Part shown: positions 28,703 to 40,027 of the stretch, piece by piece
Layout: each line of letters opens with the position of its first letter
Position numbering within the stretch: the first letter of the stretch is position 1
Program-made: the position numbers and the translations under genes
The notes under the pieces: model-generated
Told to the model about the DNA's origin: nothing
What the model saw: only the letters and a program-made list of their open reading frames with translations
The model's database searches: none
Assembly (NCBI GenBank): GCA_038229115.1
Contig: JBBROQ010000002.1
Location: 1-52,126 of the forward strand
Origin: Planctomycetota bacterium
GTDB lineage: Bacteria > Planctomycetota > UBA11346
Reading direction: 5' to 3'
DNA length: 52,126 nt

Positions 28703-30298
28703 GTGATCAGGCAGCAGTGGTTTTTCAGCACGGCTAACGACAGACAGAGCGCGATCCGCTGCTTCCTCGGCATTGCCCTGATTGCTGTGCTGAGCGCCTG
28801 CGCCGGGCCGCGCCAATGGGACACCACGCCGCCCACACCGCCATCGCCGCCGGCTACCACGGTGCCGACCGCCACGCCTGCAGTTGATTTTGCGCTGCGA
28901 GAATTTTCGCCGCGGTCGGTGTCGGTCGCGACCGACGCCGAGCCGCTGTTGCTAACGCGGGCGGATTGCGTGGCTCGGGCGCTGCGCGCCAACCGCGGCT
29001 TCCGCATCACGCATCTGGCGATGACGCAGGCGCAGGCGCAGCAGCGCTTGGCGCGGGCGCAGGTGTACGCCCCGAAACTCACGGTCGGCTACACGCTCAG
29101 CAACGGTCCCGACACCGGCGCCGCACGTGCCGACGTGGCGGTGCCGGTATGGGGCTTCGACATTCAGCCCTACGTCACCGGCGGCTGGAATCAGTACGCC
29201 CCTGCTTCTGCCTCCGGCGGTGCTGGCAGCCACACCACCGCGTATGGCATCACCGTGTCGCGTCTGCTATTCAACGTGAACGAACAGCTGCGCCAACATT
29301 TGCCGATCGAAGCCGCCGATCAGGCATTCTATGTCGCCGCCAATCGCGTGATTCTTGATGGCAAGGATTTGGACCTGCGCGCCACCCGTGCGTTCTTCGC
29401 CGTGCAGGGCGCGAGCGCACGACTGAACGTGCGTTCCCGCCGCGTGGTGGATGCCGAGACGTTTTTGCAGGCCGTGAAAAAGAATGTGCAGCTTGGCTTC
29501 AAAGCGCCGGTCGAAGCGGTCAATGCCACCATCGATCTGAATCAGGCGCGCGCCGATGCGTTGGGCGACCGCACCGCACTGCGCAACGCCGAAGAAGCAC
29601 TGCTGAACCTGTTGGCCGAGCCACTGACTCGGCGGATGACGTTGGATTTGCAGGACGCGGGCTTTGACGGCGTCACAGTTCCGACGCTTGATGACGACCT
29701 GGCGCGGGTGCGCACGCATCATGAGGATCTCGGTTCGCGGCTGGCCGAAATCGATCTGAACATCGATCAACTGCGCATCGCCACCGATCAGTTGGCGCCG
29801 CAGGTGAAGGCCGCGTTCAACGCCGAGCGTCGACACGTTGGCGACGCCTTCGTCGCGCCCGGCGCGATCGACGACACTGCGGTCTCGCTGAGCCTGACAT
29901 ATTCCACGCCGTTGGACGGATGGGCGCAGGAACGCGCGCGGGTCAGCCAACTGCGCGATCAGATCGAGACCGCGACCTTGCGTCTGCGCGACACTGAGGC
30001 CGACCTGGAACAGCGTCTGCGCTCGGCGCATCGCCGCATGGTGCAGTTGCTCTCGACGGTCGATTTGTCGGTGCAGCGCTTGGCCGCCGAACGCGCAAAA
30101 TTGGAAGCCACGTTGGTCAGCTATCAGGCCGGCACGATCGACAATTTGGAAGTCACGCGGGCCAAGCAGGCGCTCGACAATGCCGAGATCGGCTTGTTGG
30201 ATGCGCGCATCAGTTTGGTGTTGGCCGCCGCGGAATACCGCGCGATTTTGCCGATCGCCAGCGCCCCGCCGCTGGCTCTGTCTGCTGGCGGCCCATGA
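28703..30298 (+). CDS. TolC-family outer membrane efflux lipoprotein
   Basis: Probable GTG start 28703; lipobox VLSAC; LTRADCVARALRAN; two OEP halves; YQAGTIDNLEVTRAKQALDNAE. Confidence 0.85.
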   Translation: MIRQQWFFSTANDRQSAIRCFLGIALIAVLSACAGPRQWDTTPPTPPSPPATTVPTATPAVDFALREFSPRSVSVATDAEPLLLTRADCVARALRANRGFRITHLAMTQAQAQQRLARAQVYAPKLTVGYTLSNGPDTGAARADVAVPVWGFDIQPYVTGGWNQYAPASASGGAGSHTTAYGITVSRLLFNVNEQLRQHLPIEAADQAFYVAANRVILDGKDLDLRATRAFFAVQGASARLNVRSRRVVDAETFLQAVKKNVQLGFKAPVEAVNATIDLNQARADALGDRTALRNAEEALLNLLAEPLTRRMTLDLQDAGFDGVTVPTLDDDLARVRTHHEDLGSRLAEIDLNIDQLRIATDQLAPQVKAAFNAERRHVGDAFVAPGAIDDTAVSLSLTYSTPLDGWAQERARVSQLRDQIETATLRLRDTEADLEQRLRSAHRRMVQLLSTVDLSVQRLAAERAKLEATLVSYQAGTIDNLEVTRAKQALDNAEIGLLDARISLVLAAAEYRAILPIASAPPLALSAGGP

Positions 30299-38036: not shown

Positions 38037-40027
38037 GTACGCCGCTCATTTCCCTGCACGGCCTCAGTCGCGCGTACACCATGGGCGACACCGTGGTGCA
38101 CGCGCTGCGCGACGTGTCGCTGGACATCATGCCCGGCGAATTCGTGGCCATCATCGGGCCGTCGGGCAGCGGTAAGACCACGCTGATGTATGTGCTGGGG
38201 CTATTGGATCAGCCGACCGGCGGCAGTTATCGGCTGGACGGTCGCGAGGTCGCGCATCTGGATGACGCGTCGCTGTCGCAGCTGCGCAACCAATCGATCG
38301 GCTATGTGTTTCAGCAGTACAACCTGCTGCCGGATTTGAGCGTGACCGAGAACATCGCGTTGGGTCTGGCCTATGCCGGCGTGGACGCGCCGGCGCGCGC
38401 GGCCCGGGCTGAAGCGTTAGCGACCACGGTGGGTCTTGGCCATCGCTTCACCCACACCGCGCGCGAATTATCCGGCGGACAGATGCAGCGCGTCGCCATC
38501 GCGCGCGGCTTGGCCGGACGGCCGCGTCTGATCCTGGCTGATGAGCCGACCGGCAATCTGGATAGCAAAACTGGCGTCGAAATCATGGCGCTGCTAAGCG
38601 CCCTGCACGCCGATGGTCACACCATCATCATCGTCACTCACGACCCCGGCGTCGCGGCTCAGGCCGACCGCGCGATCCGGATCGTCGATGGTGAGATCGT
38701 GGAAGACAGCCGGCGGACGACGGCGCCTGAGGTACCGAGCACGACCAGCGATGCGCCGTCCTCGGCGCCGTCGCCCGCCGTCGCCGGCATGTCGCTAGCC
38801 GACACGTTCAGCACCGCGATTCGCGAGGGTTTGCTGGCGAACCGCCTGCGCTCGGCGCTGACCATGTTGGGCATCGTATTCGGGATCGCGGCGGTGATCG
38901 CGATGACCGCGATCACCGAAGGTGGAAAGCGGCAGCAGCTCGACCAGATCCGGCAGATCGGCATGAACAATGTGCAGGTGCGGGCGCTGGATTTGGATGG
39001 CGCGCGGTTGCTGCGGCAGCGGCGGATAAATCCGGATGGGCTGACGCGCGAGGATCTGGCCGCGGTCAGCGCCAATGTGCCGGGGATCGTCGCGGCCACC
39101 GCGTGGAAGAACCTGAAGGCCGAGATCCGCCGCGGCGAATATTTGGTGGATGATGCCGCGACGGTCGGCGTCACCGGCGATTTTCCGGCGGTGGCGAATG
39201 TGCAGGTGGCGCGCGGCCGATTCATCGATGCACGCGACGAAGCGACCTTCGCGCGCGTGTGCGTGTTGGGCGCGGCAGTGGCGCGCGGGCTGGGCTTGGC
39301 AGACGACGCCATCGGTGCGGTCATCATCGTCGGCGACGAGCCATGCACGGTGGTCGGCATCACCGTCGAACGTCCCTACACCGTCAGCGACGTGGCCGAC
39401 GTCGCGGTGCAGGATCGCAATCGCGACGTCTACCTGCCGTTGGCCAGCCTCGACGCGTATTTTCGTCACGCCAAATATGACAGCCGCGTCGATGCGCTTA
39501 GCCTGCGTTTGGACAGTGACGAACTGCTGTTGGAGCGCTCGCGCTTGGTGAAGCGCATTGTCAGCGATCGCCATCGCGGGGCCGAGGACTTGGCCGTCGC
39601 GGTGCCGCTGGAAAGTCTGAAGCAGGCGCAGCGCACCAAGGAAGTGTTCAACGTCATCATCGTGGTGATCGCCGCGATTTCGCTGATCGTCGGCGGCATC
39701 GGGATCATGAACATCATGCTCGCCAACGTCACCGCGCGCACGCGTGAGATCGGCATTCGTCGCGCCGTGGGCGCCAGTCGCCGCGACATCATGCGGCAAT
39801 TCTTGGCCGAGGCCGCGCTGATCGCGGCCTGTGGCGGCGTGCTCGGCCTGCTGCTCGGACTCGGCGGCGGCTTGTTAGTGCAGGCGGTGTTCGGCTTCCC
39901 AGTCGCTTTCAACGCCGCGATCATGCTGATCGCAGTCGGTTCATCGACCGCCATCGGCATTGGTTTCGGTCTGTATCCGGCGTGGCTGGCGGCGCGCATG
40001 AATCCGGTCGAGGCGCTTCGTGCCTGA
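38033..40027 (+). CDS. macB: MacB-type fused ABC ATPase/permease
   Basis: ATG 38033; [96 protein letters not shown]. Confidence 0.92.

Follow-up and report, generated by a model that had tools for sequence, protein, structure and literature searches.

A planctomycetal MacB-TolC operon with two double-length adaptors in addition to a MacA-like adaptor

The window analysed here, a 52,126-nucleotide (nt) stretch of contig JBBROQ010000002.1 from a Planctomycetota bacterium, carries a gene cluster built around a MacB-type ATP-binding cassette (ABC) exporter and a TolC-family outer-membrane factor. Six long open reading frames (ORFs) follow one another on the + strand within 28616-40027: TolC, four ORFs related to periplasmic adaptors (membrane fusion proteins, MFPs) that we call O2, O3, O4 and O5, and MacB. 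Their coordinates are those given in an earlier note on this DNA, and the junctions read there are borne out as well: TolC and O2 meet in the string ATGA at 30295-30298, O2 and O3 overlap by 14 nt (32837-32850), O3 and O4 share GTGA at 34837-34840, and ATGA recurs between O4 and O5 (36000-36003) and between O5 and MacB (38033-38036). Such overlapping starts and stops suggest that the genes are co-translated. For the single MacB and the single TolC, the same note counted five MFP modules that differ from one another; all five are supported by ortholog profiles together with AlphaFold2 models. It also assigned the modules to four separate MFP ORFs, and here the count changes. The four ORFs are present, but the proteins number three: O4, described as a signal-less MFP, is indeed an MFP module (HlyD_3 match, MacA fold) without a signal, yet it makes up the O3+O4 protein's C-terminal half and is not a gene of its own. 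Because O3 and O4 form one uninterrupted gene in relatives, the ancestral unit is, judged by sequence comparison, one of five genes (TolC, O2, O3+O4, O5 and MacB) encoding three adaptor proteins (Table 1).

Table 1. Features of the TolC-adaptor-MacB unit and its immediate neighbour (positions in the window).
Feature	Coordinates	Strand	Basis
TolC-family outer-membrane factor, predicted lipoprotein	28703..30298	+	Pfam OEP, TIGR01844, lipobox, relatives' orthologs
O2, secreted 851-aa two-module ("fused-dimer") adaptor	30295..32850	+	hhalign, ortholog profile against PDB
O3, N-terminal 667 aa of second two-module adaptor (signal peptide, module A, inserted beta-sandwich)	32837..34840	+	ortholog alignment, profile, G008 model
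Alpha-helical hairpin of O3 module A, residues 75-288	33059..33700	+	transferred from ortholog model by alignment
Inserted beta-sandwich, O3 residues 292-461, between hairpin and second lipoyl half	33710..34219	+	YxiM 2o14 profile and model match
O3 module A, residues 477-649: second lipoyl half, beta-barrel, membrane-proximal domain	34265..34783	+	ortholog model strands 446-600, AcrA alignment
Zone holding the O3/O4 frame break, inter-module linker	34789..34840	.	three-frame translation, relatives' uninterrupted frames
O4, 388 aa, C-terminal module B of the O3+O4 adaptor	34837..36003	+	Pfam HlyD_3, ortholog alignment, MacA 3fpp model match
O5, 678-aa MacA-like adaptor	36000..38036	+	MacA PDB sequence matches, AlphaFold2 model
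MacB-type ABC exporter	38033..40027	+	Pfam, NCBIfam PRK10535, relatives' orthologs
AraC-family regulator, neighbour outside the conserved unit	40020..40955	+	Pfam HTH_18 3e-23; start overlaps MacB stop by 8 nt

What identifies the two outer genes of the unit? The first ORF matches Pfam OEP (PF02321) in two stretches (E 2.9e-27); of the NCBIfam models, TIGR01844 matches at 4.1e-13, well under its cutoff, and TIGR01845 is likewise under its cutoff. Read from the GTG at 28703, the signal sequence ends in the lipobox L-S-A-C and is followed by a Pro/Thr-rich linker, and the Pfam match and the lipobox together uphold the earlier reading of a TolC lipoprotein. Its orthologs, at 36-50% identity, are the first gene of the operon in relatives, and those of MacB, at 60-74% identity, are the last. 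The MacB ORF, whose start is placed by translation at the ATG at 38033, matches the Pfam families MacB_PCD (5.8e-33), ABC_tran (2.4e-32) and FtsX (5.1e-22), so that the N-terminal ATPase, the large periplasmic domain and the four-helix FtsX permease expected of a MacB are all present. It aligns with positions 2-645 of the 648 of NCBIfam PRK10535 (E 4.5e-146), scoring 488 bits against an equivalog cutoff of 966.

Among the three adaptors, only O5 has both a membrane anchor and MacA-type similarity, and in terms of sequence O5 is the MacA equivalent. In the PDB, the sequences it matches best are those of MacA (E 3.2e-14 to 4.2e-13), and it matches NCBIfam RND_mfp at 6e-14, below the cutoff. The AlphaFold2 model (predicted local distance difference test, pLDDT, 86.3) shows a membrane helix at residues 2-23 and all four adaptor domains, with the beta-barrel and membrane-proximal domain at residues 485-673; the "long MFP" noted at 36000 is thus, on sequence matches and model, one MFP module with the full adaptor fold. 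The structures matched by the model include BesA, MacA and EmrA (Z 13.9-14.6, EmrA at 13.9), and MacA 5nik is matched at Z 14.2 but with a root-mean-square deviation (rmsd) of 28 over 326 aligned residues. The helical domain is 390 aa long (residues 91-480, nt 36270-37439) and is made of nine helical segments. HMMER pairs O5 positions 6-125 with MacA 9-135 and positions 437-666 with MacA 144-363, and the ~310 profile positions between them (126-436) stand in place of ~8 residues of E. coli MacA, making up the extra helical-domain length by which O5 differs from that protein. The hairpins of colicins E3 and E9 align to O5 residues 162-299 (rmsd 4.5-4.7), which places one O5 hairpin tip near the variable loop 223-231. 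From segment lengths alone, we infer that helices 91-148 and 154-222 would both have to ascend for the chain to return to the lipoyl domain, in which case the rod may comprise ~127 residues, or ~19 nm at 0.15 nm per residue.

We also note two strongly conserved motifs at helix breaks of O5, namely T-P-x-G-G-D-E-L (residues 149-156, nt 36444-36467) and E-I-E-K-R-G (residues 302-308, nt 36903-36923). By length arithmetic on the model these two breaks would lie at the same height of the rod, where they could form a hinge or branch point. A further string, G-A-L/M-S-x-x-x-L-D-D-L, occupies the helix break at 341-347, and HMMER pairs it with the MexA tip without significance.

The second adaptor, O2, had been read as a double MFP at 30295, and profile evidence does find two MFP modules in it. 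No curated cutoff is passed by O2, whose best match among the Pfam and NCBIfam families has a value of 0.075. When the profile of its orthologs is compared with the PDB, however, MexA is matched by query positions 18-241 (E 9.2e-10), AcrA by 390-465 and MacA by 666-793. Module A, at ~residues 35-475, consists of lipoyl, hairpin, beta-barrel and membrane-proximal domains, while module B, from ~residue 483 (~nt 31741), consists of lipoyl, hairpin and beta-barrel domains; O2 thus has the two modules in one polypeptide that characterize natural fused-dimer adaptors. Its frame is intact in the window and in the orthologs. The window's O2 and that of locus L016 begin with a cleavable-type signal without a lipobox; a lipobox is present in four of the six orthologs read and in 18 of 31 O2-type proteins from the database, the latter count resting on a rough pattern with a few doubtful matches and one missed. 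O2 and O3+O4 are full-length paralogs: hhalign aligns their ortholog profiles over 790 columns with a probability of 100 (E 1.2e-55), and in this alignment O3+O4 has an extra block in its first half, whereas O2 is without any insert.

In the O3+O4 protein, O3 has no Pfam match and passes no curated cutoff (best curated-family value 0.036); O4 passes the cutoff of Pfam HlyD_3 (2.4e-7). Against the PDB, the profile of O3+O4 orthologs matches AcrA (E 2.7e-5), MexJ and MacA, with AcrA 242-361 aligning to profile positions 518-631, and in the extra block it matches YxiM 2o14 (E 5.7e-5). For the structure we rely on an AlphaFold2 model of the intact G008 ortholog, made from a 46-sequence alignment (mean pLDDT 85.7, predicted template modelling score 0.65). 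Module A of this model runs from lipoyl strands through a 93+93-residue hairpin (helices 84-176 and 182-274) and a beta-sandwich (278-430) to a beta-barrel and membrane-proximal domain that extend to ~600. After a short linker comes module B: lipoyl strands, then an 86+92-residue hairpin, then a beta-barrel. The chain stops at residue 985, which leaves no space for another membrane-proximal domain. The hairpin arms of the two modules are thus similar in length, which fits a side-by-side packing of the modules.

Structure searches with the G008 model agree with this division. Foldseek returns EmrA 4tko at the top and also MacA, MexA-type adaptors and AcrA. With VIA-align, residues 614-985 match E. 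coli MacA 3fpp (Z 11.0, rmsd 4.5, 248 aligned) as well as ZneB, AcrA and MexA, residues 30-606 match BesA (Z 10.8), and residues 292-424 match YxiM 2o14 (Z 10.9, rmsd 2.6, 118 aligned). The "MFP with insert" of the earlier note therefore holds one MFP module and a YxiM-like beta-sandwich, on the evidence of the ortholog profile and model, and the insert is predicted to have the fold of the galactose-binding-like domain of B. subtilis YxiM. In the database proteins P0070 and P0086 the stretch that matches the insert coincides with PF21254 (AGA-YXIM galactose-binding-like); the window's O3 insert, searched alone, has no Pfam match at E <= 10. Across the 46 sequences, at ~30% identity, Gly, Trp and Pro columns are near-invariant. 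The tips of module A carry a near-invariant Gly in strings that resemble, by eye, L-x-G-x-x-S/A. The insert domain is also repeated 3-7 times in many large database proteins (500-3700 aa; P0053-P0155), and at least six further copies lie on other contigs of one relative, G012.

Two of the checks that the earlier note had proposed, domain scans of each ORF and structure prediction of single proteins, can be read together here. The curated families match the middle ORFs weakly, while ortholog profiles and models show MFP modules in all of them; and the AlphaFold2 models of O5 and of the O3+O4 ortholog both display adaptor modules.

Is the boundary between O3 and O4 a gene boundary? All seven of the relatives examined first have O3 and O4 in a common frame, within one open frame of 1029-1198 codons. 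O3 aligns to residues 1-~660 (ends 642-664) of proteins of 1000-1100 aa in relatives, and O4, from its residue 4-5 onwards, aligns to residues ~615-985 of the fused orthologs, shortly after the end of O3. When 401 genomes from across the phylum were searched, seven full-length O3+O4 matches turned up outside the window genome, with uninterrupted frames of 1068-1181 codons, besides the window's own match, which contains one TGA. Similarly, the best 150 matches of a HMMER search of 1.84 billion database representatives include 36 single-stretch full-length proteins of 985-1095 aa, and the sole 388-aa match among those 150, P0046, is the window's own O4. No other split O3/O4 was seen among the full-length matches in the 401 genomes or among the database representatives. 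Three-frame translation bounds the frame change in the window between the last stop in the frame of O4 (TGA, 34786-34788) and the stop of O3 (34838-34840), a zone that falls in the poorly conserved linker between modules A and B.

A genuine and functional gene fission, with O4 translationally coupled to O3 at the GTGA, would also account for the two ORFs, and the GTG start that sits exactly on the O3 stop and the otherwise intact state of both pieces are in keeping with it. We nevertheless consider fission quite improbable, since O4 as an ORF of its own has no signal peptide (O3 begins with one of the cleavable type), since the full-length matches include no second split form, and since the break falls within a linker, so that an error or mutation of one base there would leave the folds untouched. 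Programmed -1 frameshifting was rejected after inspection by eye of 34789-34840, which holds no X-XXY-YYZ heptamer, and third-position GC content was dropped as a means of locating the break, the frames being insufficiently separated around it. The break may be a mutation or an assembly error, and public contigs do not separate the two. One public sequencing run covers most of the stretch and two cover parts of it. Over 34300-35400, pieces of the Logan contigs reach as far as 34756 and 34814, cover starts again at 34837, and none of the contigs bridges 34815-34836, so these contigs neither confirm nor refute the frame break. That the contigs of all three runs break off or resume close to it (34757-34836) might reflect strain variation or low cover. 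We note, too, that in P0045, a 792-aa homolog of O3+O4, the profile match stops at position 703 and is followed by an Arg/Pro/Cys-rich tail that is apparently out of frame; this may be a second, independent frame break.

How widely is the unit conserved? Of 41 related genomes searched with O3, matches came from 10 of the 24 others in the window genome's family and from none of the 16 that belong to other families. The order TolC-O2-O3-O4-O5-MacB is kept, as far as the contigs reach, in all 10 species' loci, which represent seven genera of one Planctomycetota family, so that the synteny proposed as a check in the earlier note does exist. An eleventh locus, L018, was left out as 99.8% identical to L015. 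L018 belongs to a metagenome-assembled genome (MAG) titled "Burkholderiales bacterium" and L015 to one titled "Planctomycetota bacterium", and the two share this identity over 6280 bases; the bin or label of one of them is probably wrong. Among the 401 Planctomycetota genomes, the fused O3+O4 gene was found in no other family, and outside the family three of 377 genomes gave partial matches only, to the insert or a single module. The window genome has one copy. Beyond these genomes, a word-indexed protein search returned one relative for O3 (P0007, 1044 aa) and seven orthologs for the O5 profile, and a search of genome contigs found no related locus with O3 alone and six MAG contigs with the O5 alignment. 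By the titles of the relatives' records the group belongs to Planctomycetota, and the system is confined to uncultured environmental bacteria.

The earlier note had allowed that the extra adaptor ORFs might turn out to be decayed duplicates. Functionless decay would accommodate the broken frame of O3/O4 in the window and the apparently out-of-frame end of P0045, but we give it almost no credence. In relatives the gene order is kept and the adaptor proteins, at 27-50% identity, have intact frames; O3+O4 is uninterrupted in all seven relatives first examined and full-length in 36 representatives, O2 is intact in the window and its orthologs, and the near-invariant Gly, Trp and Pro columns persist at low overall identity.

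The genes that flank the unit differ among relatives, and because they are not conserved we regard the five genes as the unit. Two long contigs from relatives carry FtsH, pilin-like and other genes downstream, and neither has the AraC-family regulator downstream of the operon. Upstream in the window (21975-25886 and 26746-28545), outside the conserved unit, lie the chemotaxis genes cheA and cheB and a family-4 glycoside hydrolase. On the minus strand at 43201-45599, two long ORFs (286 and 523 aa) without a Pfam match overlap ORFs of the + strand.

How does this unit compare with known pumps? It resembles the MacAB-TolC system of E. coli in its MacB with ATPase, periplasmic core and FtsX domains, its TolC-family duct, and its membrane-anchored, four-domain MacA-like adaptor. 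It differs in having three adaptor proteins (four ORFs in the window) instead of one and a TolC that is a predicted lipoprotein, and in that the scores of its MacB and TolC lie far short of the NCBIfam equivalog cutoffs. It shares with TriABC-OpmH of P. aeruginosa the presence of at least two non-identical adaptors for a single transporter and a single outer-membrane factor; the paired adaptors of TriABC-OpmH are thought, in the portions available of PMC4338810 and PMC13328181, to occupy non-equivalent places within a trimer of dimers. TriC, however, is a resistance-nodulation-division (RND) transporter, whereas the transporter here is an ABC protein and the operon contains no RND gene, and TriA and TriB are separate single-module proteins in contrast to the two fused chains and third adaptor found here. 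EmrA and HlyD share the long helical hairpins but are single-module proteins that work with major facilitator superfamily or type I secretion ABC transporters; EmrA also has no membrane-proximal domain, according to the part of PMC4158417 consulted, like module B of the fused adaptors.

The closest precedent for the fused chains is DSY0927 of Desulfitobacterium hafniense, which excerpts of PMC4338810 and PMC4446572 present as a natural adaptor whose single polypeptide unites two different MFP modules and is associated with a transporter of the ABC type. Its host is Gram-positive and has no TolC, unlike the system here, and its N-terminal half is described in those excerpts as lacking a coiled coil, whereas both modules here have long hairpins, a comparison made by description and not by sequence. 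The same sources, with PMC13328181, support in the sections seen the view that a dimer is the functional adaptor unit: tandem-fused AcrA is functional, and TriA and TriB are both required. In the portions of the adaptor and efflux-pump literature searched, we found no MacB pump with three adaptors, no operon with two paralogous fused-dimer adaptors, and no adaptor that contains a carbohydrate-binding-like domain. Pumps with two adaptors and fused-dimer adaptors are known; a MacB pump with two double-length adaptors in addition to the usual one is, on that literature, not yet described. The suggestion of an undescribed envelope machine thus holds for the combination, which we did not find described, and not for its ingredients, since a fused two-MFP protein and two-adaptor pumps are already in print.

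We propose, with a probability of roughly 0.6, that the operon encodes a lineage-specific elaboration of a MacAB-TolC-type exporter in which rings of O2 and of O3+O4 are added parts of the same periplasmic assembly. The core pump would consist of MacB, O5 and TolC: MacB would use ATP to drive a substrate from the periplasm or the outer leaflet into an O5-built duct, from which it would leave via TolC. O2 and O3+O4, whose orthologs carry a signal peptide or lipobox for export, would each act as a covalent dimer and, by analogy with the trimer-of-dimers rule, three copies of each could form the equivalent of a hexameric ring. These rings would stack on, wrap or brace the O5 tube and in so doing lengthen, sheath or brace the duct. 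Planctomycetota have an enlarged periplasm, and a longer or reinforced duct would possibly suit its width. Since the beta-sandwich is located where hairpin and lipoyl domain meet, it should point outward at the level of the lipoyl ring, where, as a guess, it might bind glycan. A more ambitious version of this assembly is speculative, and we hold it only as a tentative idea: an O5 hexamer on MacB, with two fused-dimer trimers stacked on it or wrapped around it (up to 18 adaptor modules) and YxiM-like domains gripping cell-wall glycan, would be a multi-tier conduit kept rigid across the enlarged periplasm, of a kind that no tripartite pump described so far is known to possess.

The fused proteins might instead stand outside the duct, as periplasmic accessory proteins of adaptor ancestry that capture a glycan-bearing substrate and pass it to MacB, or that fasten the pump to peptidoglycan or to the outer membrane. 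MacB-type pumps take up their substrates on the periplasmic side, and O3+O4 looks soluble, the 36 full-length representatives read having signal peptides but no lipobox, and carries a carbohydrate-binding-like fold, while O2 is a predicted lipoprotein in many lineages. In both proteins, on the other hand, the adaptor modules are complete and their long hairpins equal in length, hairpins being the elements that form the duct and face TolC in all solved adaptors, and O2 lacks any insert; we therefore regard an accessory role as possible but doubtful. Alternatively, MacB and TolC could work with O5 alone or with another adaptor set according to condition or substrate. By the dimer-unit rule, as set out in the part of PMC4338810 seen, either fused protein alone could provide a ring equivalent to a hexamer, and such interchange can be imagined. 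It is nonetheless unlikely, since every one of the 10 species' loci has the three adaptors side by side, their order fixed and their starts and stops overlapping, and since it is O5 alone that has the membrane anchor and resembles MacA.

Several observations weigh against the joint assembly that we favour. The contacts of O2, O3+O4 and O5 with each other, with MacB or with TolC are ones that we infer, and the placement of the A and B modules and the path of the nine O5 helices are reasoned from segment lengths. The O3+O4 model is of an ortholog at 38-43% identity to the window protein, with boundaries transferred by alignment. O2 and O3 fall below the thresholds of all curated adaptor families, and O3+O4, unlike described adaptors, has no lipid or membrane anchor. 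The textbook motif by which adaptor hairpin tips dock to TolC is R-x3-L-x6-S; by eye, no module contains an exact match to it, only similar strings. Within the family, 13 of the 23 genomes searched have no match, these being MAGs that are 72-96% complete. Finally, O3+O4 is frame-broken in the window; if the break is real, module B is without an export signal and the pump of the window genome may be defective.

In the part of PMC13328181 consulted, TriABC and engineered AcrA fusions are the grounds on which the number of adaptors per pump and the rationale for a dimer unit are still argued. The present operon offers a natural example, with two different covalently fused dimers and a third adaptor serving one MacB and one TolC, and its structure would reveal how non-equivalent adaptor positions are used and whether adaptor rings can be layered. 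It also ties a carbohydrate-binding-like domain to an adaptor. Because the system is restricted to uncultured environmental bacteria, its value is mechanistic and not medical. It is also a clue to how machines that span the envelope manage with the unusual planctomycetal cell plan.

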